Of a DNA stretch of 64,000 nucleotides, positions 5,355 to 46,836 are shown piece after piece. Every line of letters begins with the position of its first letter. Position 1 is the stretch's first letter. The DNA lies in the UHGV virus genome UHGV-0072281; one strand, written 5' to 3'. Source of the stretch: a virus. A program made the position numbers and the translations under genes. Below the pieces are notes generated by a model, which was not told the DNA's origin, searched no databases, and saw only the letters and a program-made list of their open reading frames with translations.

Positions 5355-5624
5355 ATGGCTAAGATTTACATTGTTGAAAAACGTTCAGGTAATGTTCTTT
5401 CTTATCACGAAGAAGGCAAACCCGAAAGAGTTAAAACGCTCAAGCTTGAAGGTTTTGATGTGAAAAGCCTGCGTAAAGGCGTGAAGATTACTTTCAAAGG
5501 TTTGATTCGTGCAAGTAACTTACACATCATTAAAACGGACGGAACGATGGTTGCATTAGCACCGGCTACCGCTGCGAAAACGACAGCCGGTCGGGGTTGC
5601 TACGGCAGCAGTCGTAAGATTTAA
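5355..5624 (+). CDS. Hypothetical protein
   Basis: 89-aa ORF with RBS TGGAG. Confidence 0.6.
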   Translation: MAKIYIVEKRSGNVLSYHEEGKPERVKTLKLEGFDVKSLRKGVKITFKGLIRASNLHIIKTDGTMVALAPATAAKTTAGRGCYGSSRKI

Positions 5625-5630
5625 GCAGTG

Positions 5631-5669
5631 CCCCTCTCTCCTAGCGGAGAGAGGGTACTTTTATTTTTC
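5631..5669 (+). terminator. Rho-independent terminator
   Basis: Hairpin cccctctctcc-tagc-ggagagaggg followed by T-run; near-copy of the 4846 terminator stem. Confidence 0.75.
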
Positions 5670-5682
5670 TTCGAGGTGTGTG

Positions 5683-6171
5683 ATGACAACGGTATTAGTA
5701 ACAAAGGATTACATTTTAGCTGATCGTTTAGTGGAATATAGTGGAACAGTTAAAGAATTGCCCAAACTACACAAACACAAAAACAAGTTTGTTTTCTACA
5801 CGGGGGAACGTGTACTGGACACCGAGTTTTGGAAAATGTCGATGACCGTTACTATAGAAAAATATTTAGACGAGGATAAACGCAAGAAAGTTGAGCCGTT
5901 GCTTGTGGAACTTTTCGAAAAAGAGCAATTGTTTGATCAAATCGTCATTTTTACGGTCAGAGAAACCTATTGGCTAGGATTAGTATCAGATAAGTTTAAA
6001 ACGTTTGTAATAAATAAAAATGCGGTCTGGACGACGGGATCTGGTGGCGGCTTTGCGCGGGCAGCTTGGGCAACAGGAATATCAGAAAAGAAAATTATGC
6101 CATTGGTAGGATCAATTGATACAGCATCATCACAAACGTACGACTTGTTTTACAGGAAGCATTTACGATGA
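5683..6171 (+). CDS. Hypothetical protein
   Basis: ORF with GAGG RBS 6 nt before ATG 5683 (GTG at 5680 also possible). Confidence 0.6.
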   Translation: MTTVLVTKDYILADRLVEYSGTVKELPKLHKHKNKFVFYTGERVLDTEFWKMSMTVTIEKYLDEDKRKKVEPLLVELFEKEQLFDQIVIFTVRETYWLGLVSDKFKTFVINKNAVWTTGSGGGFARAAWATGISEKKIMPLVGSIDTASSQTYDLFYRKHLR

Positions 6172-6689
6172 AAATAAATGCGGTTTTAATTGGCGATGAA
6201 ATATTCGTTAATACAAAAACACAATATATGTGTTACGAAGGTATTACTGTAATAGACGATTATTACGGTAAATACGGTTGGTGGGTTCCGTCTCCTAATT
6301 CTTTACGATTAGAAGAGGCATTAACTGCCGAAGAGAACAAACTGGATGACGAATGGACTTATATCAGCTCCGTAATTGACGTCAGTGGACGAATTAAAGA
6401 CGTCTTCTGGGCTAAAGATATAGGGTGGCGTGTTACACTACACCAACCAACCCCGGTAAGATTGCTCTACGACCACGCCGATACTTCAGAGTTAGCGTTT
6501 ACCATTGAGACGCTCTCGGTACGTAAAGATTTAGATAACGTAGGTAAAGGGAAGTGGTCTATTGAACGCGTAGAGGAAATTCTTAGTCACTTTAAAGCCA
6601 ACAACAAATTTAAACGTTGGTGCACGTTACCTGAATTAGTAGAGGAGTTGAAAAAGCGGGATTGCAAGCCGCTACCTTTTAATCCGTAA
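6168..6689 (+). CDS. Hypothetical protein
   Basis: 173-aa ORF, ATGA overlap with upstream gene. Confidence 0.6.
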   Translation: MKINAVLIGDEIFVNTKTQYMCYEGITVIDDYYGKYGWWVPSPNSLRLEEALTAEENKLDDEWTYISSVIDVSGRIKDVFWAKDIGWRVTLHQPTPVRLLYDHADTSELAFTIETLSVRKDLDNVGKGKWSIERVEEILSHFKANNKFKRWCTLPELVEELKKRDCKPLPFNP

Positions 6690-30335: not shown

Positions 30336-30350
30336 GGAAAGGTGTGGGTA

Positions 30351-31016
30351 ATGGAGAAGCTTCAATATAAACGTTTAGACAATAAGTGGTTTGTATTAAC
30401 GGAGGATTACCATTATCCGTTTACGTTACGTGAGATTTATCACGACCACGTACACTTAGACCGTGCGGTTTATTTAACGGGTGTATTGCCTGACACGCAA
30501 CTGTGGTTAACAGCACCTAAAGGGTTCGTTACTGATTTAGCGTCAATTCCTGAACACCTCCAGGGAATTTTCCATCCTGACGGACCGTGGGCACCTGCGG
30601 CCTGCATTCACGACTTACTGTATCAAAAATGTAACACGGAGCGTAGCTATCCCATGACACCGGGTGGTAACGTTTCGCGTATTATCGATAAAGAGTTCTC
30701 TGACTTAACATTCCTGCGTATTATGCAGTCGTTGGAAATCTCACCGTATATCTGCCAAACGTTTTATAAAGCCGTGGCGGGGTTCGGTTGGGATGCTTAC
30801 GTAGACCCTAACGCGAAACCGTCTTATACCACTAACGATTACCGTACGTTAGATTACAATCGAAACTATTTGTTCGTTCGTGAGTTTAAGGAGCCTGCTA
30901 TTCCTGACCACGAACGTGTTGATATCACCACAGGTTGTCCCGTTAATGTCAAATACCTGAACATCAAACGGGCTTTTCTGTCTGGGAGGGAAGATGTTTC
31001 ATCCAAATCCGAGTAA
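30351..31016 (+). CDS. DUF1353-like protein
   Basis: Motif FVTDLASIP resembles the TDxASIP block of DUF1353 (from memory); ATG 30351 with AAGGAAAGG RBS (track begins at GTG 30342). Confidence 0.45.
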   Translation: MEKLQYKRLDNKWFVLTEDYHYPFTLREIYHDHVHLDRAVYLTGVLPDTQLWLTAPKGFVTDLASIPEHLQGIFHPDGPWAPAACIHDLLYQKCNTERSYPMTPGGNVSRIIDKEFSDLTFLRIMQSLEISPYICQTFYKAVAGFGWDAYVDPNAKPSYTTNDYRTLDYNRNYLFVREFKEPAIPDHERVDITTGCPVNVKYLNIKRAFLSGREDVSSKSE

Positions 31017-32099: not shown

Positions 32100-32237
32100 A
32101 ATCTCACCCTTATTAAAATTAAGAAAAAATATTTTTTCAGGTTAGCGCCTACTGCCAACCGTCATATCTATATTTTACGAAATGTCTAAAATAACATTCT
32201 TATGCAATCCACCCCTACCACTTACGAGGTAAAAACG

Positions 32238-32768
32238 ATGGCTAAAGCCTTCAATCAGCAGCTTATCGAAGCTGTAAAAGCCAAAAACCCTGAAACTTCT
32301 TCTAATCTAACCGTAGAAGACGTTGACTTTGGTGCCGTGGAAGCACATAGCGGAAATGGTGGCCGTAACACCAAAGTTACGCTGACTGCAAAAGAAGAAA
32401 GTGCTAACTTTACTGGCAGCAAAGAATTCCACTACACTCGTCTGGCTTCCCAAGACTTGATCGGTGCCAAAGCTTACGAACAAGCTGGTAATCTCGATCT
32501 GGAAAACTCAGCCATCGTAACCAAACTCAACGAAGAAATGGTTACTAAAGGTTATACCGACGACGCGTTTGTCGAAAATGAACTGACAATTGAGAAAACT
32601 GACGGCGATAGCGGTGCTAAAGTTTACACTATCAAAGTAAAAGATGCCCACATCAAATTCTTGACCGGCACCATTGCCACTTTCACTTATACCAACCCAG
32701 CGCCTGAAAAAGTAGCCCTTAGCGGTCTGGAAGGTGAACTTGATGGCTTCACAGCCCCAAAAGACTAA
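32238..32768 (+). CDS. Hypothetical protein, first of three tandem paralogues
   Basis: ATG 32238 with GAGG RBS (track begins 32202); shared core ..NTKVT(L/M)TA...S.NF.G...(L/F).Y.RL....GELDGF(T/K). Confidence 0.6.
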   Translation: MAKAFNQQLIEAVKAKNPETSSNLTVEDVDFGAVEAHSGNGGRNTKVTLTAKEESANFTGSKEFHYTRLASQDLIGAKAYEQAGNLDLENSAIVTKLNEEMVTKGYTDDAFVENELTIEKTDGDSGAKVYTIKVKDAHIKFLTGTIATFTYTNPAPEKVALSGLEGELDGFTAPKD

Positions 32769-32819
32769 TGCTTTAACAACCAAACTAAGGCGGTAAATCC
32801 GCCTTATTAGGAGAAAAAA

Positions 32820-33359
32820 ATGGATAGTCAAGCTACTAACCAAATGCAGCTAGTCGAGTTATATAACGCTGCCAACACTGGTTTGCCGCACAAATTGGTG
32901 TCGTCTGAAGTAAAATTTGGTCTGCCCTCTGCAAACGACGACGGTGAAAAAAATACCAAAGTTACAATGACCGCTTTACCCGGCTCAGAAAATTTCCGTG
33001 GTCAGATTGAACTTAAGTACGACCGATTAAACCCCTCCATAATTTCTGATTCTCTGGGAGTGGTCAAACTCGAGGGGGAGATAGAAAAATGGCGGGAAGA
33101 TAACTATGTTCGCGCCTATCTGCAACATTATATTAACCAAGTAAAACCCAGAGACACAATAGCCACAGGCGATATTGTTTATAGTTACGAAGAAGTAAAA
33201 GAACAGGATAAACTTGTCGCACTACGAGTTACCTGCACTGTCGCTGAAAGAAACCATAAATATCTGCAAGGCGTAATGCTTGTCTTTGAAGTTAGTCCAG
33301 AAAAGATCGATCTTTCCACCACTAACGGAGAGTTGGACGGCTTTAAACCGACCGAGTAA
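32820..33359 (+). CDS. Hypothetical protein, tandem paralogue
   Basis: 179 aa; strong similarity to 33394 gene (QM.LV.LYNAANTGLPH...KNTKVTMTAL.GSENF.G.IELKYDRL). Confidence 0.65.
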   Translation: MDSQATNQMQLVELYNAANTGLPHKLVSSEVKFGLPSANDDGEKNTKVTMTALPGSENFRGQIELKYDRLNPSIISDSLGVVKLEGEIEKWREDNYVRAYLQHYINQVKPRDTIATGDIVYSYEEVKEQDKLVALRVTCTVAERNHKYLQGVMLVFEVSPEKIDLSTTNGELDGFKPTE

Positions 33360-33393
33360 CCACTAACAACCAACTTTTATAGAGATTAAATTA

Positions 33394-33924
33394 ATGGCAG
33401 CTACTAACCAGATGATGTTGGTCGCGTTGTATAATGCTGCTAATACTGGGCTACCGCATCAGATTACTGATAAAGAAGTGTCCTTTGGTCAACCTGTTGC
33501 GCTGGAAGGCGAAGGTAAAAACACCAAAGTTACCATGACAGCATTGGCGGGTTCCGAAAACTTTAAAGGCTCAATCGAACTGAAATACGATCGACTGGAA
33601 CCGGGTGTTGTAGGGCGTATTGAACTAACTGACGATCTGTCTCGTTGGGTAGAAGAGAACGAACTGCGAGCCTGGTTACAGTATTATATCAACAAAGTAA
33701 AACCTAACGACACGATCGCGCCGGGAGATGTTGTTTATTCTACAGAAGACCAAAAAGACGAGCATGAAAACGTTACTCTGCGAACAGTAACGTGTACCGT
33801 TACCGAAAGAAACCTCCGTTATAAACCAGGTGTAATGGCAACTTTCGTAATTACACCGAAGGTTGTCGATAATCGTATTGACCTGGCCACCACCAACGGT
33901 GAATTGGACGGTTTTACTGCTTAA
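33394..33924 (+). CDS. Hypothetical protein, tandem paralogue
   Basis: 176 aa; see previous. Confidence 0.65.
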   Translation: MAATNQMMLVALYNAANTGLPHQITDKEVSFGQPVALEGEGKNTKVTMTALAGSENFKGSIELKYDRLEPGVVGRIELTDDLSRWVEENELRAWLQYYINKVKPNDTIAPGDVVYSTEDQKDEHENVTLRTVTCTVTERNLRYKPGVMATFVITPKVVDNRIDLATTNGELDGFTA

Positions 33925-33944: not shown

Positions 33945-34000
33945 ACAAAAAAAAACAATAAGTTTACCTACCTCCTTTACGGAGGTAGGTATTTTTTATT
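33945..34000. terminator. Bidirectional rho-independent terminator between convergent operons
   Basis: A9 run, hairpin cctacctcc-tttac-ggaggtagg, T-run. Confidence 0.75.
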
Positions 34001-34670
34001 CTAATCCCATTTCCAGTGCAAGTGCACGGATAGTGTCGTAGTCACGCTGTTCAGCTAAGAGGCGAAGCTCTTTTTTCTGTGCGGTCATTTGTCCATGCAA
34101 CTTCTGATCACGTTTTACGATCTCGGACAATAATTCCTTACACTCTTCTAATGTAAAGGGTTCTAAACGTGTATTGGCGGTATCCAACCAATATTCTGGC
34201 GCAGTTTCAGATTGGATGTATTGCCCTAACATTTGTCGGGAGATTGCATCAGCCTGAAAATGACGTTCATTTAGCTGAATTGGTTCGTAACGTTGTGCTT
34301 CGTAACGCTTCTCCAACGCCATCATGATCTTTTGAACATCTAAATAAATATATCGTGCTGTTGAACGAACGTTACTTCGAATCTCATCCAGATCTATCTC
34401 CAATTTATCTGAAATGAACTCTTTTGCTTTTTTCAAGGTGAAATTTGCTTCAATATCTGACATATTGTAACTACGCATTTGATCTAACGCGTCTTCATCG
34501 GACATGCCGTCGAGTAGTTTGTAATGAAGCAGTGTACAAAAACCCGTTCTGCCGCGATCTTCAGTACCTATATGGCCCAAAAAGTTTCCGTGGCGATCAA
34601 TTGGGGAAAGTCGGCTAAAAAATCTGGCGCGAATATCTTCGTTTATTAAGCTTTTGTCAAGAGCAGGCAT
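33996..34670 (-). CDS. Hypothetical protein, last gene of the radical SAM/peptide locus
   Basis: 224-aa ORF, overlaps upstream gene by 25 nt (translational coupling). Confidence 0.55.
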   Translation of the reverse strand: MPALDKSLINEDIRARFFSRLSPIDRHGNFLGHIGTEDRGRTGFCTLLHYKLLDGMSDEDALDQMRSYNMSDIEANFTLKKAKEFISDKLEIDLDEIRSNVRSTARYIYLDVQKIMMALEKRYEAQRYEPIQLNERHFQADAISRQMLGQYIQSETAPEYWLDTANTRLEPFTLEECKELLSEIVKRDQKLHGQMTAQKKELRLLAEQRDYDTIRALALEMGLE

Positions 34671-35218
34671 TCGTCTTCTCCTTTAATTAAACCCAGCTCG
34701 ATCAGAAGATCAAAATCGATTTTACGAAACTTACTATCAAAATTTGAGTCCCAGTCAATATGTAGTCCTTGACGTTCGTCTTCTGTAAACTCGGGATAAA
34801 CTAAACTATGAAAAGTTTCCCTTTCATCGTAAAAACCATCGATGGTGGACTCTGGGTTTCGTGTGACATAAATTGTTACACCGGGAAACGATAAGCCTAG
34901 GGCGGCTACAGATTCAACACTCGGCTCTTGCAAAGCGCGTCGCAAAAGAACGATTTTATGTTTAGGGAATTCCAGCACGCGCTGTTCAAAACCTGGGTTT
35001 CGTTTCTCGATTTCAGCCACAGAAAGATCGGTAAGTTCTGTACAATACATCGGAATAACAACGGTAACTCCGTGACGAATTAATAATCGCTTAACATCGT
35101 CATTGAAATCTTCGCCGTTAATCTGTACATAACAGCCAAACAGTTTCGTAGTTTCTAAAAACTTTTCCAGAAAACGGAATTTACGCTTCGTAATATTGTG
35201 GATCAGAATTGGCTTCAT
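34646..35218 (-). CDS. Hypothetical protein in radical SAM/peptide locus
   Basis: 190-aa ORF overlapping the SPASM rSAM gene end. Confidence 0.5.
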   Translation of the reverse strand: MKPILIHNITKRKFRFLEKFLETTKLFGCYVQINGEDFNDDVKRLLIRHGVTVVIPMYCTELTDLSVAEIEKRNPGFEQRVLEFPKHKIVLLRRALQEPSVESVAALGLSFPGVTIYVTRNPESTIDGFYDERETFHSLVYPEFTEDERQGLHIDWDSNFDSKFRKIDFDLLIELGLIKGEDECLLLTKA

Positions 35219-36503
35219 CTTTGGCTTCTCTCAATTGTTTTTCTTTCTGGGCGCGTTCACGTACACAGCGAGGACAGTAACACATGCTATTATCGTGAAA
35301 ATCCTTCACGGATGTTGTGCCCATTTTCTGCTTCCAATATTCCGCAACCATCAATTTTGCAGTTGTCCAACCACACTGACGACGTTCAGCGTGATATGCT
35401 TTACGGTCTTCTAACGTCCCTTCCCCATTCTCGTAGGAAGCTGCTGCACAGCTACCACAAGCGTGTTTCATTGGACAACCTAAGCACGTCTCAGGATAGT
35501 TGGTGTATTGCGTCTGAATCTCTTCCAGCAGTTTCCCACCGTCTAAACTAACGAATTCGCGACCGACTAACTCAAATACCGCAGAGCGTGACGTTACAGT
35601 CGACATGAAACGGTTACAACCGAAAATCTTCCTGTCAAACCCTAAACAAGTCATGTGCGTTAATGTCCCGCAGAACGGGCGCAAGCGTTCCGGGTTTAAA
35701 CGTACAGTATCGTTGTAAAGTAGCTGATCACGCCAGTTCGGTTCCCAGATAGTGTCGAAATCTAACCCTTCCGGGATGATATGCGAAAGGGTATTACGTG
35801 GGTTGGTGTGTAAACCCTTTTCAACCCAATAATCGACTACATCCATCATTTGTAGCGCTATCGACGTAGCCATACTCCGTGGCATAATGTCTTCGAAGGT
35901 TACGTTACCAGAAATGGTTCCACCTCCCGCCAAATCGATTAGGGATTTCATACCCGCCGCATAATGTGGGAGTGTCTCCAAAGTAAATGTCGCTTTAACC
36001 CCAAGCTCCGCGATACCTACTTCTTTTAGATAATTGTAACCACGTACAGCGGCCTCGTAGGAACCTTCGCGACTCGTTGTAAAAATACGGTACTTATCGT
36101 GCGACTCAGGTAACCCATCAATAGATACCCCGATAGAAAGTCTGTCCTTCCAACGTTCAATAATTTCCCTGTTCAACGGCCTATCTAATAATGTCCCATT
36201 AGTAGAGATACTAAACATAAACGGACGTTTATGTTCTTCACACAACTGCTCGGCTGTTTCGAAAGCAGTCATTAGAAGCTTAGGCTGCATAAACGGTTCA
36301 CCGCCGATAATGTCAATGATGACTTCTACGTTTGGTAAATCTTTATCGCGTTCAAAGCAGGCATGAAGAAAGTCTACAATATCCGCTGCTTTGTTATTGC
36401 GGGGATATTTACGCTCGTAACAATACTCACAGTCCAAATTACACGACAAGTTTGTAACAATCTGGTAAGTCAACTGTTTCGGGTAATTATTTTCTTGGTT
36501 CAT
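35181..36503 (-). CDS. Radical SAM enzyme with C-terminal SPASM-like Cys-rich domain (putative peptide-modifying maturase)
   Basis: N-terminal CNLDCEYC (C-x3-C-x2-C), IIGGEPF glycine-rich SAM motif, C-terminal Cys clusters incl. CLGCPMKHACGSC. Confidence 0.8.
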   Translation of the reverse strand: MNQENNYPKQLTYQIVTNLSCNLDCEYCYERKYPRNNKAADIVDFLHACFERDKDLPNVEVIIDIIGGEPFMQPKLLMTAFETAEQLCEEHKRPFMFSISTNGTLLDRPLNREIIERWKDRLSIGVSIDGLPESHDKYRIFTTSREGSYEAAVRGYNYLKEVGIAELGVKATFTLETLPHYAAGMKSLIDLAGGGTISGNVTFEDIMPRSMATSIALQMMDVVDYWVEKGLHTNPRNTLSHIIPEGLDFDTIWEPNWRDQLLYNDTVRLNPERLRPFCGTLTHMTCLGFDRKIFGCNRFMSTVTSRSAVFELVGREFVSLDGGKLLEEIQTQYTNYPETCLGCPMKHACGSCAAASYENGEGTLEDRKAYHAERRQCGWTTAKLMVAEYWKQKMGTTSVKDFHDNSMCYCPRCVRERAQKEKQLREAKDEANSDPQYYEA

Positions 36504-37410
36504 TTAATACTCCACTATTACGGTTGGCCATAACCACTCGTCGAATATACTCGTAGGCTTCTAACCCGATGGAACAAGCTAATTGGTTACATCCCGATTC
36601 TAATAATCTCGGGGCATTTTGCAACTGATATTCGGTTCCATCTGCTCTTAACCATAAACTATTGCTGCATACGTTACACCCACCATCAAAAACTTTGCTT
36701 ACGACATAGTCACACCTTTTCGAGTTGGAAACATTCAGTCTTTCTATATTTTCCTGAATTCTAAAATACCCGTAAATAAAGTTCATAACGTGATCGGGAG
36801 ATAACGGTTTTGGCATATTTGCGTCTAACAGCAACGTCATGGTACGATAACCGTAGTGATAGATCGCATTATGAAGCTCAATAATGTCTTCATGCCACCG
36901 TTTGTTACCCAACTGTTCTCGAGTTAAAACGGCCCATGTATGAACATTTTCAAGCTCATGCATTACTTCTAAAGCTTCGTAGCAATCATCGCTAATAAAA
37001 CGCTTAAAAGGGCGTTCAGACAACTCAAACCCGTCGATGCTAACATATACGTTATCAAATTGTTTTAACAACGGTAGATGCGTTTTACGCATCTTTAAGC
37101 CATTGGTGTATAACTGATGTTTGAGTTCTGGGCGAACTGCTTTTAACTCGTCAACAAACGCCTCAATTTTACGAGTGGCTAACAAAGGCTCACCACCCGT
37201 CCATTGAATCTCGGTAATTGTTGGGTTAGCTTCTAACGCCTCCATAATTCGGTCACGTTGAAACTCTCGAGAAGAATCTTCACGATTCATGTAATAGGCT
37301 CCGCCGCAGAAACTACAGTCCAGATTACATTTGGATGTAGTAATAACGGCTAATATAGTTGGATTATCAAATAGCTGATCTGATAATTTTGGTTCCGCAT
37401 TGGTCGCCAT
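36487..37410 (-). CDS. Radical SAM enzyme (paralogue B)
   Basis: VITTSKCNLDCSFCGG (C-x3-C-x2-C), WTGGEPLL; C-terminal Cys residues; paralogue of 39018-39929 with blocks of perfect nucleotide identity. Confidence 0.8.
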   Translation of the reverse strand: MATNAEPKLSDQLFDNPTILAVITTSKCNLDCSFCGGAYYMNREDSSREFQRDRIMEALEANPTITEIQWTGGEPLLATRKIEAFVDELKAVRPELKHQLYTNGLKMRKTHLPLLKQFDNVYVSIDGFELSERPFKRFISDDCYEALEVMHELENVHTWAVLTREQLGNKRWHEDIIELHNAIYHYGYRTMTLLLDANMPKPLSPDHVMNFIYGYFRIQENIERLNVSNSKRCDYVVSKVFDGGCNVCSNSLWLRADGTEYQLQNAPRLLESGCNQLACSIGLEAYEYIRRVVMANRNSGVLNEPRK

Positions 37411-37432: not shown

Positions 37433-38320
37433 TTAATTATAGTCGATAGCGAACAATGGATCTTCGTCGAAATTGACTCCAGGTTTTAAAACCTTAGTCG
37501 AATTATACGCCTCTAGCAACCGATTAAGATCGTTATAACGACTATTCATTCTTTTGAGGTCTTCTAAGGTCACAATACGATCAAGCATCGGCTTAACGGC
37601 CTCGGCTTCTTCATCAGTCAATTCAACCTTAGACAACAAAAAACTAACAAGTTTAGAAATATCAGCCTCGGTTACTGGACTTTGGCCAAATCGTATTTGA
37701 ACAAGATGTTGCATCCATGGTTTACGAATACGCTTCGTAATAACATGCTCATCAGTAATGGCTTTCCAAACAGAACGTTCACGAATCCATTCGAACTTAT
37801 AGCTATAGGCCATTAAATCAGCTAAATGTGCAATCCCGAGGTCCTGATAACCTTCAATGTTGGTGTATGGTTCACTGTCGGAATACTCTTCAACATCCTT
37901 ACCAACAAGAGTATAGTAATACGGAAAAGCCCCCATGTAATCTGGACTCCACCATCTCCGAACCATAGGCTTAGCGTCAAGCTCAGCAAACGGTGTAAAA
38001 AAAAGTTCTAAATCGCTACCAGCATTTAGAACTCCGTCACTGAAGAAGTATTTACCATCAACAATCATTCCATAAAGTTCATCATCTCCTGTAAAAACTA
38101 TCACACGTTCGACCGGCAGATCACGAATTGTAAAAGTATTTTCTACAGAGATATTATCACGGTTGACGATATCACGACCCCGTAATTTCGGCCATTCGCC
38201 AGGTAGCATGGTAATTAAACGAACGTCGTCACTTAAATGATAACGTACAGAATCTGGAGAAGAGATTTGCAAAGGATGGTTAAATGTAGTGTTATATGCT
38301 AAATGTAAATCGTTTTTCAT
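37433..38320 (-). CDS. Hypothetical protein between precursors and radical SAM gene
   Basis: 295-aa ORF; no recognisable motif. Confidence 0.55.
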   Translation of the reverse strand: MKNDLHLAYNTTFNHPLQISSPDSVRYHLSDDVRLITMLPGEWPKLRGRDIVNRDNISVENTFTIRDLPVERVIVFTGDDELYGMIVDGKYFFSDGVLNAGSDLELFFTPFAELDAKPMVRRWWSPDYMGAFPYYYTLVGKDVEEYSDSEPYTNIEGYQDLGIAHLADLMAYSYKFEWIRERSVWKAITDEHVITKRIRKPWMQHLVQIRFGQSPVTEADISKLVSFLLSKVELTDEEAEAVKPMLDRIVTLEDLKRMNSRYNDLNRLLEAYNSTKVLKPGVNFDEDPLFAIDYN

Positions 38321-38343: not shown

Positions 38344-38553
38344 CTACTTATTACCGCCAGCACCACGGCTACAACTACCGCTACAGGACCAGCTACACCC
38401 ACCGTTACAGTTATAGTGACTCAACGGTAAACCAGAAAGGTTATTAGTGGACGACACCGTACCCTGGTTTGCAATATAGTTGTTTGCTCCTGCTGTGGTA
38501 ATGTATCCTTCCGCCGTTACTAATCTGTCGCGTATGTTTTTAAGACTTATCAT
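38344..38553 (-). CDS. Cys-rich precursor-like peptide A (leader + short CxxxC core)
   Basis: 69 aa: leader MISLKNIRDRL...HYN then core CNGGCSWSCSGSCS; conserved leader and junction shared with B and C. Confidence 0.65.
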   Translation of the reverse strand: MISLKNIRDRLVTAEGYITTAGANNYIANQGTVSSTNNLSGLPLSHYNCNGGCSWSCSGSCSRGAGGNK

Positions 38554-38556
38554 TTC

Positions 38557-38955
38557 TCATCTTCCCGTACACGATTGCGAACAGCCACCATGACAGGTAC
38601 GACTACATGTACCTGTACATGTAGTCGTACATTGACCTATACATGTCCCCGTGCACCCACCAGAACATGAACTAGTACAACCTGAACATCCAGAACTACA
38701 ACCAGAAACACAGTTTGCTGAACATGAGGAACCACAACCTCCAGAAGCATTACCGGTACAACCACCAGAACAACTGGAGCACGTCCAGCTACAGCTACCA
38801 CCACAGTCGTAATGATTTTTAGGTTGCCCGCCAAATAGGTCGACATTATTCGTAGCCTTTCCACGAATATAGTTCTGTACTGCTCCAGTGTTTTTTAGCG
38901 CGGAAGAATCTATATTATCCAAGCGCGCTTTTAAAGAAGATAAACCAATCGCCAT
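38557..38955 (-). CDS. Cys-rich precursor-like peptide B (leader + long CxxxC-periodic core)
   Basis: 132 aa: ~50-aa leader then ~80-aa core with about 20 Cys at regular 4-residue spacing in G/S/T background, beginning DCGGSCSWTCS. Confidence 0.7.
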   Translation of the reverse strand: MAIGLSSLKARLDNIDSSALKNTGAVQNYIRGKATNNVDLFGGQPKNHYDCGGSCSWTCSSCSGGCTGNASGGCGSSCSANCVSGCSSGCSGCTSSCSGGCTGTCIGQCTTTCTGTCSRTCHGGCSQSCTGR

Positions 38956-39017: not shown

Positions 39018-39929
39018 TCACAATTTTGCCGGAATCCTATTCTTAGCCCCTACTACTCGTCGTATATAATCGTAAGCATCTAAGCCAACCTTTCTGGCTA
39101 AGTCACTACAGCCATGTTGCGTTACGATTTCAACGTTTTTTACTTGATTCTGGACACCGTCAGACTCGATACGTAAACAACGACTACATGTATTACAGGG
39201 TTCATCAAATAACGCGTTTAGCGTAAACGCGCACTCGCTTCGATTGGACGAATTCAGTCTTTCTATATTTTCCTGAATTCTAAAATACCCGTAAATAAAG
39301 TTCATAACGTGATCGGGAGATAACGGTTTTGGCATGTTTTTGTCCAAAACTAGCGACATCTCGCAAAAACCGTAATGGTAGATGTGATTATGTAGCGCAA
39401 TTATATCCTCATACCAGCGTTTATCACCGATACGTTCTCGTGTCAAGACTGCCCAGGTACGAATATTTTTCAATTCGTAAATTGTCTCCAACACCTCGTA
39501 TTGTTTTTCTTCGATAATCCGCATAAATGGACGCTCTGATTCTTTGAATCCGTCCATGCTAAAAAAGATGCTATCGAAACCCTTTAACAACGGTAGATGC
39601 GTTTTACGCATCTTTAAGCCATTGGTGTACAGGTAATGATCACAGCGAGGATACTTCTCCCTTATCTCTTCTATAAGGGCATCAATTTTACGCGAAGCGA
39701 GTAATGGTTCACCTCCCGACCACTGAATATTTGTGATGGTCGGGTTATTTTCCAGCGCCTCGATAATACTTTTCTTTTGTACTTCTGCGGTTGTATCCTC
39801 TCTATGCATGTAATAGGCTCCGCCGCAGAAACTACAGTCCAGATTACATTTGGATGTAGTAATAACATTTAACGTTCTTGGTTCAGAATACAATTGATCG
39901 GATACTGTCGGTGTGGTTAACTCTATCAT
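39018..39929 (-). CDS. Radical SAM enzyme (paralogue C)
   Basis: VITTSKCNLDCSFCGG, WSGGEPLL; immediately downstream of precursor C. Confidence 0.8.
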   Translation of the reverse strand: MIELTTPTVSDQLYSEPRTLNVITTSKCNLDCSFCGGAYYMHREDTTAEVQKKSIIEALENNPTITNIQWSGGEPLLASRKIDALIEEIREKYPRCDHYLYTNGLKMRKTHLPLLKGFDSIFFSMDGFKESERPFMRIIEEKQYEVLETIYELKNIRTWAVLTRERIGDKRWYEDIIALHNHIYHYGFCEMSLVLDKNMPKPLSPDHVMNFIYGYFRIQENIERLNSSNRSECAFTLNALFDEPCNTCSRCLRIESDGVQNQVKNVEIVTQHGCSDLARKVGLDAYDYIRRVVGAKNRIPAKL

Positions 39930-39953
39930 CAGTAATAGTACCTATCTGTTAAA

Positions 39954-40346
39954 TTAAGTCGGTCCTGAACAAGACGCACATGCGCCACTACATCCCGAGC
40001 TACAACGCCCGGAGCATCTACCACTGCATGTAGCGCTGCAACCAGTGCACCCACCAGAACACGTAGCGCTGCAACCAGTGCATTGATTACCGCAGGCGGA
40101 TGAACAGCTTCCAACACACACTGAGGTGCACGTACCAGAACAACTTGTACAACCATGCGTACAACCGTTCGAGCACGTCCAGCTACAGCTACCACCACAG
40201 TCTAATCGACCCGGTGTCCAGCCTGAAAAAGAATCTGCGGCATTGTGAGCTTTTGATGCAACCTGTGGATCGACGCGGGGTCCTGTCGCCATTTGATTCT
40301 CTACGTTGGTGATTCGATCGCGAACGTTTTTAACACTAATCGCCAT
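39954..40346 (-). CDS. Cys-rich precursor-like peptide C (leader + long CxxxC-periodic core)
   Basis: 130 aa: leader MAISVKNVRDRI...GRLD then core CGGSCSWTCS... with about 21 Cys; AAGGA RBS. Confidence 0.7.
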   Translation of the reverse strand: MAISVKNVRDRITNVENQMATGPRVDPQVASKAHNAADSFSGWTPGRLDCGGSCSWTCSNGCTHGCTSCSGTCTSVCVGSCSSACGNQCTGCSATCSGGCTGCSATCSGRCSGRCSSGCSGACASCSGPT

Positions 40347-40412: not shown

Positions 40413-41618
40413 TTATTTCGTACCCGCTTCCGCCTGTACGTCATCACGAGACGTCAAGTTAGCGTTAACGTGTACTGGGGCCTGAACCACACCACCGTAT
40501 TTCTTGTGGAGATAACCGGTATGTGGGTTATCTGCCGCAATGTGGTTTTGTAGGTTCTGGTTCGCCTGACTGATTGCGTTCGTGTTGTTAGCAACTTGCT
40601 TTTTGAGCGCATCCAGGTTCTGTTGTAACTGATCGATTTTCTGATCGGTTTCTTGACCCTGTTGCTCTAACGCGTCAACACGCTGAATAACCTGATTCAG
40701 TTTCGTGTTCAAATCGTTAATGCTCTTTTGCAGCTGTAACACTAACGAGTTCAGGTTCGCTAACGCTAAAGCCATTTTCTGGTAGTTTTGAGCAACCACG
40801 TTAAGTTGGTCGTTCCACGCTTCCAGAGAGTTGACAACAGCGTCAATACGCTTACCTAAAGCTTCATCTGCTTTCTTCAGTGCATTGATTTCCGTAATCG
40901 TTGCGTCGATAGCAGACTGGACGTCACGAATAAGCGCACGGATTTCAGTTTCTGTTAACCCGTTAACCTGATGAATATCAAGATGGTGAACGTTACCGGT
41001 TGCGTTAATGTGTGCATTTAAAGCGTCTAAGAAGTCATTTTTCAGGCTTTCTAAAATCGCTTTAATGTTCTCTAACTGTACCGCGTCACCAGAACTGATC
41101 GCATCTTTAATACCCGCCAATACGGTAATGATATATTCAAAACCGTAAATATCACCTACGTCTTTATACGTCGGTGCAGAAGGGAATGTATCTGGTACGT
41201 TACGCAGGTCTTTAAACGCAACCGTACGGTTATCGAGGTTTAATTCAGCAATCGCCTGTTCGATAGCCACGATGTTCGCAGACTGTGGGCCACCAACGAC
41301 CTGCGCAGATACCGTAATATCTGTTGGAATCGCTGTGTTAGTGACCACCACCGCCATAACAATCTCGCGGTTTTTAGTCAGCTTTTCATAAGTCGGGTGT
41401 GCAAAAATCAACTCATAATCGGTACCACGTTCGTAGGTTGCATCCGGTCGGTTAGCAACGCGTAAACGGAACGTGTCCGCAAAGAACGGGCCGTCAGGAA
41501 AAGCAAAAGCACGGTTTACTTTACCTGTACCTAACGTAATCTGACGCTCCACAGCGTTAGACGTTAGCGAGCCCGTTAAATCTAAAGGATATTGATAAAC
41601 AATGGAGGCCATGGCCAC
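40413..41618 (-). CDS. Fibre-like structural protein with N-terminal shared anchor module and coiled coil
   Basis: 401 aa; N-terminal block (FPDGPFFADTFRLRV...GTDYEL) shared with the three giant proteins upstream; long heptad-like segment; C-terminal NPH motif. Confidence 0.6.
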   Translation of the reverse strand: MAMASIVYQYPLDLTGSLTSNAVERQITLGTGKVNRAFAFPDGPFFADTFRLRVANRPDATYERGTDYELIFAHPTYEKLTKNREIVMAVVVTNTAIPTDITVSAQVVGGPQSANIVAIEQAIAELNLDNRTVAFKDLRNVPDTFPSAPTYKDVGDIYGFEYIITVLAGIKDAISSGDAVQLENIKAILESLKNDFLDALNAHINATGNVHHLDIHQVNGLTETEIRALIRDVQSAIDATITEINALKKADEALGKRIDAVVNSLEAWNDQLNVVAQNYQKMALALANLNSLVLQLQKSINDLNTKLNQVIQRVDALEQQGQETDQKIDQLQQNLDALKKQVANNTNAISQANQNLQNHIAADNPHTGYLHKKYGGVVQAPVHVNANLTSRDDVQAEAGTK

Positions 41619-41652: not shown

Positions 41653-44600
41653 TTAAGATGTAAACATAAGATTGAACTGGAGTTTGTCGATATCGCGAGT
41701 TTCTGCTGGATTCACGCCGTCGTACGCGGTCGCTACGTAAACCGTTAGCGTACCGTCAGCGTACGAGGATATTACCGGTGGGTTAGTTCCGGTCTGACCA
41801 TCTCGCACAATGAGTGCAGGCTCGCTGGGAAGATTATCAAACTGCCCTTTAACCGCTTTGTATACCAAACCGGACTGTGCAGATAACTCCGTGTCTGTGT
41901 ACACACAGAACGGTGTATCGATGTCAGCTTGTTTGATAGTGGTACCGGATTCGACATCAACCAACTGTACTGCTCCAAACTTCGTGCGATAACTTTCATA
42001 TTCGTTCTTCGGAATAACAAAAGTAACGTGAACACGAACTTCTTCAGCGGGCTTAAAGCCAGTATGTTCTTTTTCCAAATACTGGTTGGCTGATAGTGTC
42101 ACTTTTTGTTCGGCCATCGAACCACCTGCCTGATTTATTCCGTACCGGGCTTCAACAATACCGGTTGGTGCAGCAAGTCGCAATTTCAGAGTCCGATTCG
42201 CCGTTCCTGGATTACCTGGCACTTGAACGCGCAAACTCAATGCTAAGTAAGCATACGTTCCGGTAGTCGGTTTCGTATACGCACCTATCCATTTCATGTT
42301 CGCAGACGCTGCCTGCGTGTTCTCAGAAGCAATGGCTGTCGTAATGTTAGCAGCTACCGCTTTCTGCCAGAATTGGTCGGCGCAGTTCTCATACGCTACT
42401 CTGGCCACGCTCTTATAACCCGAATACGTTTCCTGAATTGGTAACTTAGGACGCGTCGTGATGCCAGACAATGAACCCCATTTTTGACCGTCAACATACC
42501 CTTCGCCCTTCGACGCAGCCGCCGTAGGTGCTTTAACGGGCTTGTTAACCAGGGTTAATAGAGGACCCGTCTTTCTGTCAAACGCTGCTGCTACATCGTG
42601 TTGGTCGATAATTGCTGCGTGGTCTTCCAGCTCTTTCACACGACCCAAGCGTTTTACTTTGTCGATACTGATATCAGTAATACGGCTGGAATCGGTGGTT
42701 ACTGTCCCGACGAACAGTCTCGTTGAAGTATCGGCTAACTGCTCCAAACCGATGCGGTATTGTGCGGTAGAATCCGACACCTCAGCGTGCACGTAGAACG
42801 TCTGGTTAGCGTGATTGGACGGGAACTCGCTGCTTAAATCCACAGACCACGTTGGGAGTGTGTAGCTGCTGCTACCGAAGTCTAATTTGACTTCTTCTGT
42901 CAAATACAGAATCCAACCTTCCGCTGTCTCCACACCAGCAATAATAACCGCCTGACCACCGGTTGAGAACGTCGTGTCGTTAACGAACTCTGCGGCTGTA
43001 TACGCGTTACCTGAACAGAAAACACGGTCAGCTTTAGAGAAAATCAACGCCATCTTGTCCCAATTACCGGCACCCATATAGCATCCAGATTCTGGGTTAT
43101 GCGCAGGAGCCATCTGACGTAACTGCGACTTACCAGGAACGCGAGACCAACCTGAACCTGGGTCGTAGGTATACTTCGCGGCGTAACCTAGTGCGTTTAA
43201 GTCCCCGATATTTCGGATAGTTAACGTATAAGGTAGCCAGATACCGAAGTTAGTTCCATCCGCAGAAGCGAAAATAGGCTGTCCGACGCGACGGGTCTTA
43301 TTACCAGCCTCCTCTCTTAACGACTGATAACTTAAACCGTAGTCTTTATCCAGGAACCAATCCACCAACTTAAAGTTAGCGGAGTTGAACCGTAAGTAAC
43401 CATTCTCTTTAGATGGACTCACCATGAAGTAATAGATGTCAAGAATTCGACGACCGTTACTTAAGGTTTTCATGCACGAAACTTGCAACAAGTCAAATTC
43501 GCACACGGTGTTGATACCCAACATCCAAAGAGCAAACAATGCATTACCGGTTTGATGGGCAGCACTAATACGTTCGTTCGCGTATCCGTTCGCTTGGCCA
43601 GAAGGTGCACCGTCAACGATCATCCGAATCATTTTCTGTCGATCGGCTTCTTCTAGCGTTAAGCGTTCGGAAGACAACGCGAAGTTACCGTAGATGTTAC
43701 GATACGGGAACGTTTCTGCTTTGGTCAAATACCAACCGTTTAACTGTCCGTGACGCTCCTCAGGAGTCATGCACGCAGCCATACAGCTAAGCTGCTCATA
43801 TAGCGTTGGATCGACTTCACGACGGTTGTTGTTCGGACCGTATCCGCTATAACCCGGAACATCGTAAGGTTTGTTCGGATCAACTTCTACTTCGATGGTG
43901 TAACGGTTACGTGGGTTAGACATCCACACTTTGTTCGAACCACCAATCCCAACAGGATGGGAAAGACCAATGGTATAAATAGAACCACGACCTTTATCCC
44001 AGGTAAACGTTCCTTCGCCTGAGGTATTGTTTGGGTTATCGTAACGCAGATAATCGAAAAATTCTTTGCCTTGTGTTCCTTTAATAGAAACGTTAGGCAT
44101 TTGGTCCGCGTCGTTAATCTGCCAGCAGGAAAGCATCATTCCTGTTCCATTAGGCTTAGCGTACGTTGCAAAACAACGATTGTTTGCTTGACCACCGCCC
44201 CACTTACGGCTGGTTTCTACAGTTGAACCATCCGCGAAAGAGAGTGTAGTAGCATCAGCCTTGATGGGAAAGCGTTCGCGGCCTTCTAACGTAACCTTGC
44301 CCGTCGACGTATCGATTGTAAAACTTGTTGCCCACTGACGAAAGTTAATTTGTGAGCTGTCAGCCGCTGCAAACCACACAGTAGGCATATGGTTCACACG
44401 AATCACGCCGTCGCGCACTGCACAAGCATGGTTACATTCTGGACCGTGAACAAAGTTGCAACCAATTGTCCATTTAGCCCGTGCTTCCGGCGTCAAATAC
44501 GTAAAGAACTGACCCGTTTGTGACTCTTCGGTTTTCTGGCCAATGCGTAGGCAGAGGTTATCTCCGAATTGTCCCATCTCCCCGTTTAGTGTTACGCGTT

Positions 44601-46836
44601 CAAACTCCAGCGTGGTGCTAGTAGACAAATCGTCCTTACGTAGACGCCAAGCTGCTACTGCGTAAGCAGAGTTATTTACCGTAGAGCGGAGAAGATAAAC
44701 GTAATCCTCAACCAACACAACATCATCGGCTTCTGGCCACGGATTCCAGGTTTGTTCCACAGTACCGCTGGGGTTGCCGTTACGGTACACGGGCATCGTA
44801 ACGCGACATACCACCGTGTGTTTAGTGTGATCCATCGAACCATTAAACAACACCAAATAACGGTTATTATCAGAACCCAGACAAATAATCGCTTCCTGAC
44901 CACCGATCAATATAGCTTTCAGGGTCACTCCAGGATATTTACTCATCCCGGCAGGGTGATATTTCACTGAGGTCTGCTGCGGATTTACAAACGCGTTTGA
45001 CGTGTTAATGTCAGCATAGCCGTAATAAATGGCTTCTGTACCCGGTACGCCGTTAGAACCGTTACGGAGCGAATAAACCTTACCCTGCTGATACCCAACA
45101 ACCCCTTTTTGATAAGACTGGTTTTTGGTATAACCCGAATAGTTACCTAGCGCTGGGATAGGTAAGAAGTTCTTGTTACCGAACTTCGCACCACCTACCG
45201 TCCACGCCGGTAAGATGGTATTCAGTTTATCAGAGACTTTCTTAATCTCTTTTGCGAACAGCCACCCTTGACGCGACGTGACAGCTTTATCGTTAGTAGT
45301 GTCAATCGCATCCCAGAGCTGCAAGATACCGTCAACCGATGCACTACCAATTGGAATGTTATCCAAGTCAGCAGTGGTGTGTGTATGCGTCTTCAAACTC
45401 TTGTTTTTCAACACGTTCGTTAACGCTTTCGTCACCGGCTTAGCACTTGGCGTGGTGTTATCCATCTTATCGGTACCGAAATCGGTTTTCGTTAAGGTTA
45501 ACACCATACTGTCGCCTACCTTAACAAACCCTTTACCGTTAACGGTATAGTCATCGTCAACGTACAGGTCCAAGCGGTCTTTTAATTCGGTTACGGCTTT
45601 CTGGGAGATAGCAGTACCTAACGCCGCAGACGTGGAGATATTCGTAATCGAGAACAACCCATAAACTGATTCGGTCGCTGTGGGAATATTCGCGTTTAAC
45701 GTAACCGGGTTAGTCTGTTTTGCGGTACCGTACGGTTTTACAGTGTCTGACGCTTTGAAATACGCGTTTGCTTCGAGCAACGTTACTGACGTCAGGTACA
45801 TGTTCACCATTTCTGGCGTAACCAGATACACGGAGTTATAAACCGGCGCTAATACATCCTGTTCTGACCCCGAGTGAACCCAAAGCGTATTCAGACCCGC
45901 ACTGAATTCAACCGCTAAACCTGATTCGTTGTTGTCCTGGTCTGCTTTAATCACCAACGGTTGTGGCGAGGTAATTAACCACTTATCACCGCGAATACTG
46001 ATGATGTGGCCACCTGACGTTTTAAACGTTAATTCAATACCGTTAGTAGTGCCCCATCGACCGTAAACAGTACCGAGGGCTTCACCCATTAACTGGTCAA
46101 CGTCTGATTGCTCAATACCCGCTGAACCCATCAGCGTAGCCAACTCGTCAATCGTCAACCCAAACGCTTTTGTAGCGTCAACAGCGCGGCCTAATACCGG
46201 GAGAGCAGCAATGTCGTCAGTGGTATAATGATGAGCGTTAGGATTCCGGTGGTGTTGGTATAACTCTTCGTCGAAAACCTTTTTACCGTTCTCGTAAATC
46301 AGGTTAGTAACTTCACTAAACGCAGCATCTAACTCTGTAGAACGCTTAATGATTTTCTTACGAATGTCTTCTAACGCCTTAACAACCTCATCTCTCAGAA
46401 TAGCTTCTTCTAAGTTAGCAGGCGGGTCGATTGGTTGAATAACCGGCGCATACGCCATTAGTTCAGACCAGTCCACGTTACGTGGGTCTTTCAGGTCAGT
46501 ACGAACTAAGAACTTCCCGATTTCAGATTGCGGTACACGATATTGACGTGCTACCCCTAAAATCTCATATTCGATTTCTGTTGCAGTAAGCAACATAAAC
46601 CCGCCGTAAATCTGATCTTGTTCAGCTTCTGCGAGTTCTTTAAAGTAATAGCCTAAATAGTAGTCCAACCCCTCAATCAGAGTACGACGTCCGTTAGGCG
46701 CGGTATCGTCGGCTACTGTGAGTTTTAATCCGATACGATAAAAAGGTCCTTCAGGTGGAATGACCACGTTAAATCGGTTAGGGTACGTTGCTGTGCTTAG
46801 CGTACCGTTAAACTGCGCCGCGTCTTCTCTCGGCAT
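41653..46836 (-). CDS. Giant tail fibre / tail spike-like structural protein
   Basis: 1727 aa; N-terminal block PPEGPFYRIGLKL...GLDYYL homologous to neighbours; AGGAG RBS. Confidence 0.65.
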   Translation of the reverse strand: MPREDAAQFNGTLSTATYPNRFNVVIPPEGPFYRIGLKLTVADDTAPNGRRTLIEGLDYYLGYYFKELAEAEQDQIYGGFMLLTATEIEYEILGVARQYRVPQSEIGKFLVRTDLKDPRNVDWSELMAYAPVIQPIDPPANLEEAILRDEVVKALEDIRKKIIKRSTELDAAFSEVTNLIYENGKKVFDEELYQHHRNPNAHHYTTDDIAALPVLGRAVDATKAFGLTIDELATLMGSAGIEQSDVDQLMGEALGTVYGRWGTTNGIELTFKTSGGHIISIRGDKWLITSPQPLVIKADQDNNESGLAVEFSAGLNTLWVHSGSEQDVLAPVYNSVYLVTPEMVNMYLTSVTLLEANAYFKASDTVKPYGTAKQTNPVTLNANIPTATESVYGLFSITNISTSAALGTAISQKAVTELKDRLDLYVDDDYTVNGKGFVKVGDSMVLTLTKTDFGTDKMDNTTPSAKPVTKALTNVLKNKSLKTHTHTTADLDNIPIGSASVDGILQLWDAIDTTNDKAVTSRQGWLFAKEIKKVSDKLNTILPAWTVGGAKFGNKNFLPIPALGNYSGYTKNQSYQKGVVGYQQGKVYSLRNGSNGVPGTEAIYYGYADINTSNAFVNPQQTSVKYHPAGMSKYPGVTLKAILIGGQEAIICLGSDNNRYLVLFNGSMDHTKHTVVCRVTMPVYRNGNPSGTVEQTWNPWPEADDVVLVEDYVYLLRSTVNNSAYAVAAWRLRKDDLSTSTTLEFERVTLNGEMGQFGDNLCLRIGQKTEESQTGQFFTYLTPEARAKWTIGCNFVHGPECNHACAVRDGVIRVNHMPTVWFAAADSSQINFRQWATSFTIDTSTGKVTLEGRERFPIKADATTLSFADGSTVETSRKWGGGQANNRCFATYAKPNGTGMMLSCWQINDADQMPNVSIKGTQGKEFFDYLRYDNPNNTSGEGTFTWDKGRGSIYTIGLSHPVGIGGSNKVWMSNPRNRYTIEVEVDPNKPYDVPGYSGYGPNNNRREVDPTLYEQLSCMAACMTPEERHGQLNGWYLTKAETFPYRNIYGNFALSSERLTLEEADRQKMIRMIVDGAPSGQANGYANERISAAHQTGNALFALWMLGINTVCEFDLLQVSCMKTLSNGRRILDIYYFMVSPSKENGYLRFNSANFKLVDWFLDKDYGLSYQSLREEAGNKTRRVGQPIFASADGTNFGIWLPYTLTIRNIGDLNALGYAAKYTYDPGSGWSRVPGKSQLRQMAPAHNPESGCYMGAGNWDKMALIFSKADRVFCSGNAYTAAEFVNDTTFSTGGQAVIIAGVETAEGWILYLTEEVKLDFGSSSYTLPTWSVDLSSEFPSNHANQTFYVHAEVSDSTAQYRIGLEQLADTSTRLFVGTVTTDSSRITDISIDKVKRLGRVKELEDHAAIIDQHDVAAAFDRKTGPLLTLVNKPVKAPTAAASKGEGYVDGQKWGSLSGITTRPKLPIQETYSGYKSVARVAYENCADQFWQKAVAANITTAIASENTQAASANMKWIGAYTKPTTGTYAYLALSLRVQVPGNPGTANRTLKLRLAAPTGIVEARYGINQAGGSMAEQKVTLSANQYLEKEHTGFKPAEEVRVHVTFVIPKNEYESYRTKFGAVQLVDVESGTTIKQADIDTPFCVYTDTELSAQSGLVYKAVKGQFDNLPSEPALIVRDGQTGTNPPVISSYADGTLTVYVATAYDGVNPAETRDIDKLQFNLMFTS

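Follow-up and report, generated by a model that had tools for sequence, protein, structure and literature searches.

Among the described radical S-adenosylmethionine (SAM) enzymes, here abbreviated rSAM, PapB, the freyrasin ranthipeptide maturase, forms several thioether macrocycles on a repeat substrate (PMC11002830), and QhpD, an rSAM/SPASM enzyme, introduces cysteine thioether cross-links into a protein that stays a structural subunit of a complex and is not a secreted peptide (PMC11002830). CteB is the SCIFF/thermocellin thioether maturase, and its substrate is a short SCIFF peptide. The HxsB/HxsC system combines a long SPASM rSAM enzyme and a short rSAM enzyme with a short-period repeat substrate. 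A further group is the 'radical SAM peptide maturase, CXXX-repeat target family' (TIGR04115, curated cut-off 350 bits); the TIGR04114/TIGR04115 system is curated and defined bioinformatically, and no biochemical characterisation of it was found in the literature searched. The original family description is reportedly that of Haft and Basu in 2011. The present study concerns a 440-aa protein, here called the long enzyme, encoded on a 64,000-nucleotide stretch (the window) of the virus genome UHGV-0072281, an uncultivated relative (~225 kb) of the SPN3US-like jumbo phages that is present in gut-associated metagenome assemblies. From sequence comparison and analogy, this protein is probably the core rSAM/SPASM maturase of a phage tail-fibre-tip maturation cassette, a reading to which we assign a probability of roughly 55%.

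The long enzyme and its place among rSAM maturases

The gene and the cysteine motifs of its product are located as follows.

35181..36503, minus strand: long radical SAM/SPASM enzyme, 440 aa, orthologue of SPN3US gp163
36420..36443, minus strand: CX3CX2C radical SAM cluster motif CNLDCEYC (C21, C25, C28), invariant in 32 homologues
35373..35672, minus strand: SPASM-like region from C278 to C377 (C-x7-C-x9-C, gap, CX2CX5CX2C, gap, C), with seven invariant Cys
35265..35282, minus strand: extra C-terminal CxCxxC in CYCPRC (C408, C410, C413), jumbo-phage clade only

The open reading frame (ORF) starts with ATG, preceded by a GGAG Shine-Dalgarno sequence at 6-nt spacing, and translation of 35181-36503 gives zero internal stops. 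Its start overlaps the stop of the upstream gene for a short rSAM enzyme (307 aa) by 17 nt, and its 3' end overlaps the start of a downstream 190-aa gene by 38 nt, so that it is one cistron of a tightly packed minus-strand operon. As the initial annotation had stated, CNLDCEYC lies near the N-terminus (residues 21-28), at least two C-terminal cysteine clusters are present (CLGCPMKHACGSC, CGWTT and CYCPRC were all located in the protein), and the enzyme is distinct from the two paralogous rSAM enzymes nearby, with which it shares 24-26% identity over the N-terminal 130-140 residues only.

Membership of the rSAM superfamily is given by the CX3CX2C motif, by a GGE motif (G67, G68, E69) and by a match to Pfam Radical_SAM (PF04055) above the gathering threshold (54.5 bits against a cut-off of 29.5, E 2e-14); Fer4_12 was also matched in Pfam. 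In the AlphaFold2 model (predicted local distance difference test score, pLDDT, 89; predicted template modelling score, pTM, 0.87), residues 9-240 form alternating strand-helix elements that match rSAM crystal structures. Both motif and model predict a SAM-cleaving [4Fe-4S] site (C21/25/28, GGE). In a conservation alignment of 32 homologues with identities down to 30%, the GGE motif, the three cysteines of the cluster motif and seven cysteines in SPASM order (C278, C296, C340, C343, C349, C352 and C377) are invariant in 32/32 sequences. The first two of these seven are spaced C-x17-C, with an additional, mostly conserved C286 between them; C278, C286 and C296 represent the first half of the SPASM pattern, which had previously been overlooked. 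CLGCPMKHACGSC corresponds to C340/343/349/352, and CGWTT starts at C377. CYCPRC had also been counted as an auxiliary cluster element, and here the initial annotation has to be corrected, as the CxCxxC trio is conserved in the jumbo-phage clade alone and belongs to a clade-specific extension outside the SPASM region. In this clade the trio precedes a charged helix, and may serve as an additional metal site or in docking.

The top Foldseek matches of the model were the full-length SPASM enzymes CteB, ChlB, anSME, SuiB and TigE, over about 400 columns of the 440 residues, which places a SPASM fold C-terminal to the rSAM core. The family profile aligned with CteB (PDB 5wgg) at E 3.8e-35, through rSAM and SPASM, and with anSME at E ~1e-15, from the rSAM core into the C-terminal domain; in both cases the Cys columns are in register. 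By Cys order, profile alignment and predicted fold, the C-terminal domain is SPASM-like, and its seven invariant Cys would be predicted to hold two auxiliary clusters. The Cys box is CX2CX5CX2C and not the canonical CX2CX5CX3C.

Among NCBIfam models, the best match of the enzyme was TIGR04115 (E 1.3e-34, 120.2 bits, profile positions 3-344 of 359) and the second was PapB (NF047865; 1.8e-32, 112.9 bits against a cut-off of 340). Both profiles are matched from their first positions, unlike most other maturase models, and since CX3CX2C starts at residue 21 there is no N-terminal domain resembling the recognition element (RRE) of systems for ribosomally synthesised peptides that are modified post-translationally (RiPPs). 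As these two families are the closest and yet both fall below threshold, the enzyme belongs to a sister clade. Its relatives can be described in two tiers: tier 1 comprises 11 loci of the long-enzyme clade, the distant homologues among them having 31-40% identity, and tier 2 consists of relatives at 24-29% identity on IMG/VR contigs, largely from one gut-associated collection. The closest named relative is the orthologue SPN3US gp163 (83.5% identity), and full-length orthologues among isolated phages were found only in SPN3US-like jumbo phages (61 records, 60-84% identity), the hosts of which are Salmonella, Escherichia, Proteus, Erwinia and Cronobacter. These are annotated only as "radical SAM superfamily protein", with "AlbA" in one record. 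At the DNA level, no phage genome was matched by the 7.8-kb cassette in a megablast search, and relatives were found at the protein level. The rSAM genes of Campylobacter (CP220-type) and Vibrio phages were considered as orthologues and rejected, as their similarity is confined to residues 12-139, the generic rSAM core; the assumption of earlier phage papers that phage rSAM genes raise host metabolism (PMC2853527) is therefore not applicable to the long enzyme.

The TIGR04114/TIGR04115 system resembles the present locus in giving the best match by hidden Markov model (HMM), in having substrates with Cys at every fourth residue and an N-terminal CX3CX2C without an RRE-type domain, and in that its true members on viral contigs likewise lie downstream of baseplate/tail genes. 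It differs in that tier-1 relatives score 120-183 bits against the cut-off of 350, with 24-29% identity to true members, and in that tier 1 adds a short rSAM enzyme and a 250-295-aa partner and is without a ~100-aa protein found in tier 2. Some tier-1 members score as high or higher with PapB than with TIGR04115, but the PapB-related, QhpD-type chemistry takes Asp/Glu acceptors, and the phage repeats are almost without acidic residues. CteB is the best match among solved structures by sequence (8e-11), by profile and by fold (E 4e-15, 406 columns), and its SPASM Cys are aligned with those of the long enzyme; the differences are an identity of 18%, the box CX2CX5CX3C of CteB in place of CX2CX5CX2C, and the short peptide substrate. 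Matches begin at about residue 105 of CteB, so that its N-terminal region, an RRE, is absent from the phage enzyme. The model for QhpD (TIGR03906) is matched by the long enzyme at 1.6e-15, but the similarity to the QhpD/QhpC system is distant, the acceptors of QhpD are Asp/Glu, and that system has neither a repeat substrate nor a phage context. HxsB is matched by the long enzyme (1e-21) and HxsC by the short rSAM enzymes (5.8e-11 and 1e-10), in a similar combination of components, but with scores far below the cut-offs and with an HXS repeat in place of the CXXX of the phage proteins.

Cysteine-repeat proteins and tail fibres

The same-strand CXXX-repeat neighbour that goes with TIGR04115 is present in the window, where three such genes, pepA, pepB and pepC, all belonging to phrog_6085, lie within 3.9 kb of the long enzyme. 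Two short rSAM enzymes and a partner protein are encoded among or beside them.

39954..40346, minus strand: pepA, CXXX-repeat protein, 130 aa, 21 Cys
39018..39929, minus strand: short radical SAM enzyme a, 303 aa, an extra paralogue of the window lineage
38557..38955, minus strand: pepB, CXXX-repeat protein, 132 aa, 20 Cys
38344..38553, minus strand: pepC, short Cys-repeat protein, 69 aa, 4 Cys (CNGGCSWSCSGSC)
37433..38320, minus strand: 295-aa partner protein, phrog_8030, no Cys, orphan fold
36487..37410, minus strand: short radical SAM enzyme b, 307 aa, orthologue of SPN3US gp164

Both pepA and pepB have an N-terminal part of ~49 residues that is free of Cys, followed by a Cys-rich region in which the spacing is mostly 4 and otherwise 3. 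Pooled over the tier-1 Cys-repeat proteins, the spacing is 4 in 92/120 intervals and 3 in 23/120, and the consensus of the repeat unit is C-[ST]-G-[GST]. Acidic residues are rare: in 92 CXXX units, Asp occurs twice at +2 and twice at +3, and Glu not at all. The Cxxx-target models TIGR04114/TIGR04117 are weakly matched by pepB. A pepC of ~68 aa with four Cys (CNGGCSWSCSGSCS[KR]GAGG...) is kept beside pepA and pepB in SPN3US (L001) and in the loci L086 and L087.

Copies of pepC: window 38344-38553; L086 5799-6032; L087 5818-6024; L001 6902-7120

From this sequence conservation, pepC appears to be a real third member and not a decaying copy, and three paralogous chains would be compatible with a heterotrimeric fibre tip. 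In public records these genes are often missing or wrongly called. In the SPN3US RefSeq entry, pepA and pepC are missing, and of pepB no more than a 111-aa piece is annotated (L001 6085-6483, 6902-7120); in CR5 (L169 4136-4534) and Phobos (L171 4142-4945), 'hypothetical proteins' on the opposite strand are annotated over the Cys-repeat genes; and at the pepA position metagenome gene callers give ORFs of 30 aa and 89 aa instead (L166/L167 2111-2575), the latter being the length of a wrong-frame ORF at 39929-40198 of the window. As the genes are mostly unannotated and the core regions are almost without tryptic sites, published virion proteomes could have missed the proteins.

The association of the enzyme with Cys-repeat proteins extends well beyond the window. 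A Cys-repeat ORF on the same strand occurs within 2.2 kb (median 730 bp) of the enzyme in 80/80 viral loci and in 10 of the 14 full-length genome loci of relatives, compared with three of 66 control loci of other rSAM families within the fetched set. Tier-2 relatives are true TIGR04115 members (434-497 bits), flanked by a Cys-repeat protein of 150-570 aa and a conserved ~100-aa protein, and their cassettes lie directly downstream of baseplate-wedge/tail genes, usually upstream of lysis-like genes. It could be argued that the repeats are merely metal-binding or disulfide modules, that the rSAM enzymes act on a nucleotide, a cofactor or a host target, and that their adjacency reflects genome organisation. 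Repeats rich in Cys, Gly, Ser and Thr do resemble metal-binding proteins, and a role of phage rSAM genes in boosting host metabolism has been assumed, as mentioned above, but the Campylobacter genes concerned match the N-terminal core only. Such an explanation is made very improbable by the co-occurrence (80/80 versus 3/66) across families at 24-40% identity, by the fact that the tier-2 relatives belong to a family defined by its CXXX-repeat targets, and by the conservation of the neighbourhood in unrelated phage morphotypes.

The link to tail fibres comes from the distant homologues of the long enzyme (31-40% identity), the genes of which lie within tail modules in unrelated prophages and phages.

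L003: P2-like prophage of Campylobacter pinnipediorum, with the order baseplate J/I, tail fibre, 250-aa protein, long rSAM, short rSAM, DUF1353, sheath
L002: GpJ-type siphovirus-like prophage of Deferribacter abyssi
L089: lambda-like element
L091: P2-like element
L090: 284-kb jumbo contig

In all five, a tail-fibre gene immediately precedes the cassette, and its product ends in a Cys repeat of the same type. The fibres of L003, L089 and L090 match tail-fibre families in PHROG/Pfam with E-values of 1e-25 to 1e-55, that of L091 has weaker tail-family matches (the best labelled one at 2.5e-10), and that of L002 was identified from its HxH repeats and position only. The C-termini of the L002, L090 and L091 fibres match phrog_6085, the family of pepA, pepB and pepC, and for L003 and L089 the likeness rests on the Cys-repeat scan and a junction alignment. 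The junction, ...G-x7-C-x3-C-x3-C-x3-C, is present in 8/8 aligned sequences (the three pep proteins and the five fibre C-termini), and the form CSW[TS]CS is common to pepA, pepB, pepC and the fibres of L002 and L091. In the L002 fibre (5490-6398), HxHDxRYYTExE repeats are combined with the CXXX domain; such repeats are similar to the HxH motifs that bind metal in other phage fibres and spikes.

The initial annotation had proposed a peptide-modifying rSAM enzyme that acts on neighbouring precursors. Family placement and gene neighbourhood bear this out, but the implied free RiPP does not fit as well, since pepA, pepB and pepC are homologous to tail-fibre C-termini, which points to the maturation of a virion protein. 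In a conventional RiPP system the three proteins would be leader-plus-core precursors, modified by three rSAM enzymes, and lysis would set them free as bioactive peptides of a bacteriocin-like, metal-binding or signalling kind. The Cys-free part of ~49 aa that precedes a Cys-rich core, the annotation of all the closest enzyme families as peptide maturases, and the coding of the peptides by separate small genes in the window would agree with this. However, scans of the ten cassette proteins with Pfam, NCBIfam and PHROG detected no protease, transporter or immunity families, so that the cassette does not correspond to a canonical RiPP cluster with a leader protease and/or exporter and a released product, and the long enzyme is without an N-terminal RRE-type domain. 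Moreover, the stretch before the Cys repeat in the fibres, which are 300-480 aa long, is homologous to the N-terminal parts and junction of the pep proteins, and the cassettes lie within the tail/baseplate blocks of myo-, sipho- and jumbo-type phages. A conventional RiPP is, on balance, quite unlikely.

Companion proteins and neighbouring genes

The long enzyme had been described as a 'third', accessory enzyme beside the two paralogues, a view that cannot be kept, because it is the sole rSAM enzyme found in every related cassette. A short rSAM gene is present in most tier-1 cassettes; it is absent in L089, fused in L090 and duplicated in the window. The fusion in L090 (7131-9188) joins short and long rSAM in a single ORF of 686 aa, and represents a Rosetta-stone link between the two types. 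In the HMM scan the short enzymes matched no SPASM or twitch model, and they have only 2-3 semi-conserved C-terminal Cys, which are missing in the fused L090 version. The 307- and 303-aa enzymes share 63% identity, and their genes (36725-37393 / 39244-39912) are a diverged in-situ duplication, with 73-78% DNA identity at a constant spacing of 2519 bp. As SPN3US, L086 and L087 have a single short rSAM, the copy of 303 aa, which lies between pepA and pepB, is specific to the window lineage.

A homologue of the 295-aa partner (241-299 aa) was found in 11/11 tier-1 loci and in 0/160 other loci (171 in total), and a profile built without the L003 protein still finds it (6.5e-17). The family is rare, with 45 representatives at E<=1e-3 among 1.84 billion proteins. 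Its AlphaFold2 model (pLDDT 87.5) has no match in the PDB (best E 0.2), and in BFVD it retrieves only its own orthologue; there was no match in Pfam or NCBIfam, and neither the model nor HMMs gave an assignment as RRE or chaperone. In 51 tier-2 loci a ~100-aa protein lies between the Cys-repeat gene and the TIGR04115 maturase (L092-L165; e.g., L102 7574-7900), and it is a candidate for a substrate-recognition subunit. Its relationship to the 295-aa partner was considered and rejected, HMM search and hhalign both being negative. Conservation across the cassettes indicates that the long SPASM enzyme, the Cys-repeat domain and a partner of the 295-aa type form an invariant core, with the short rSAM as a frequent but dispensable companion.

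The cassette is flanked on both sides by genes of the same minus-strand block.

41653..46836, minus strand: baseplate/fibre protein, 1727 aa, homologue of SPN3US gp168
40413..41618, minus strand: coiled-coil virion structural protein, 401 aa, homologue of SPN3US gp167
34646..35218, minus strand: 190-aa protein, phrog_7988, gp162 homologue, jumbo-phage clade only
33996..34670, minus strand: DUF4376 protein, 224 aa, gp161 homologue, last gene of the minus-strand block

The order along this strand is thus 1727 aa, 401 aa, pepA, 303-aa rSAM, pepB, pepC, 295 aa, 307-aa rSAM, 440 aa, 190 aa and DUF4376. SPN3US gp168 is a tail protein by proteomics (PMC5105663). According to the SPN3US supplement, gp161-165 are shared only with PhiEaH2 and CR5, and the genes lie beside homologues of phiKZ structural genes. 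A promoter/terminator scan did no better than with shuffled sequence. Three tandem paralogues of 176-188 aa (DUF7941, ending in ...TNGELDGF...) are encoded at 32202-33924 (plus strand), convergent with the cassette, and a perfect 11-bp stem-loop lies at 33965-33991, between the two blocks. A DUF1353 protein occurs near the cassette in the window (30342-31016, plus strand) and also in L003 (10068-10433), directly after the short rSAM.

The proposed reaction and its wider meaning

The following scheme is built on gene neighbourhood, gene fusion and domain homology, and on analogy with CteB, PapB and QhpD. The long enzyme would act on the neighbouring proteins with C-[ST]-G-x repeats, pepA, pepB and pepC, as putative free-standing forms of the Cys-repeat domain at the end of tail fibres in unrelated prophages, and it would cooperate with the short rSAM(s) and with the 295-aa partner, which occupies what may be a tail-fibre chaperone position and may present the substrate. 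Reductive cleavage of SAM would generate a 5'-deoxyadenosyl radical that takes a hydrogen atom from a carbon in an amino acid close to each Cys, and the auxiliary clusters may help to couple the Cys sulfur to that carbon, giving a thioether. With ~20 repeats per chain, the product could be a ladder of ~20 S-C links; the conserved residues that are candidates for the acceptor are limited to Ser/Thr at +1 and Gly at +2. A second reaction, or a subset of the links, may fall to the short rSAM(s). Such bonds could form in the reducing cytoplasm, where disulfides cannot, and may produce a rigid fibre tip that is resistant to proteases and reductants.

A thioether ladder is proposed because the closest characterised relatives, by sequence, profile and fold, form thioethers. 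The same substrates might instead receive another modification, such as Cys oxidation (anSME-like formylglycine), heterocycles, epimers or C-C links, with thioether or other links perhaps made by the short rSAMs. That anSME is a full-length structural and profile match, that the C-terminal half weakly matches the thio(seleno)oxazole maturase SbtM (E 0.007), that the repeats are without the Asp/Glu acceptors of PapB and QhpD, and that two rSAM types in one cassette suggest two reactions, would all be in keeping with a different chemistry. We nevertheless regard it as unlikely, as the best sequence and fold matches are thioether-forming (CteB at the top, PapB second in NCBIfam), and a density of one Cys in four residues fits Cys as the cross-linking partner.

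Several observations tell against a SPASM maturase that staples fibre tips. The HMM check suggested in the initial annotation did not turn out in its favour: Pfam SPASM (PF13186) gave no match in the C-terminal half scanned alone, even at E<=10, and TIGR04085 (SPASM) remained below its cut-off (24.0 bits against 27, E 3.9e-5, profile positions 1-86 of 93), so that the claim of a SPASM-type C-terminal domain stands on Cys order, profile alignment and fold but misses the HMM thresholds. The membership scores of TIGR04115 and PapB are not reached by the enzyme (120.2 against 350 bits and 112.9 against 340). The phage repeats do not have the Cys-X3-Asp/Glu motif of PapB-type substrates, being dominated by S/T, G and G/S/T, and as the acceptors of PapB and QhpD are thus missing, the acceptor and the thioether chemistry are a guess. 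In the window, pepA, pepB and pepC are stand-alone proteins of 69-132 aa, and their presence in virions is deduced from the fused homologues only. In the literature searched, no paper was found that deals with tail fibres modified by rSAM enzymes, with maturases for CXXX repeats or with gp163-166 of SPN3US, and the main text of the SPN3US essential-gene/proteome paper does not mention gp163-167.

Radical SAM is likewise not mentioned in the main texts of the SPN3US papers that were checked. The enzyme class and the CXXX-repeat target family (TIGR04114/TIGR04115) are already known, and the gene has an orthologue in SPN3US that is annotated but unstudied. As far as could be established from the literature searched, three aspects are undescribed: CXXX systems as part of phage tail-fibre modules, the Cys repeat as a fibre C-terminal domain, and a clade that pairs the long enzyme with a short rSAM and an orphan-fold partner. 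A more general proposal, that phages use rSAM enzymes to staple their distal fibre tips with dense, non-reducible S-C ladders, and that CXXX-repeat rSAM systems (TIGR04114/TIGR04115) are mostly phage tail modules and not bacteriocin-like RiPPs, is put forward tentatively, with somewhat less than even odds.

If the proposal is true, an in-silico RiPP class would be reassigned to phage tails, and a set of systematically mis-annotated Cys-repeat genes would be exposed. Densely thioether-stapled Gly/Ser/Thr scaffolds would be of interest to peptide engineers, as PapB already is. Since amber mutants exist for SPN3US, a genetic model phage, the idea can be tested directly. It would provide a function for genes that have been conserved in over 60 isolated jumbo phages of the SPN3US type, as well as in many contigs of gut phages, and would place a new virion maturation chemistry, affecting the host-recognition organelle, beside proteolysis, HK97-type isopeptide links and glycosylation.

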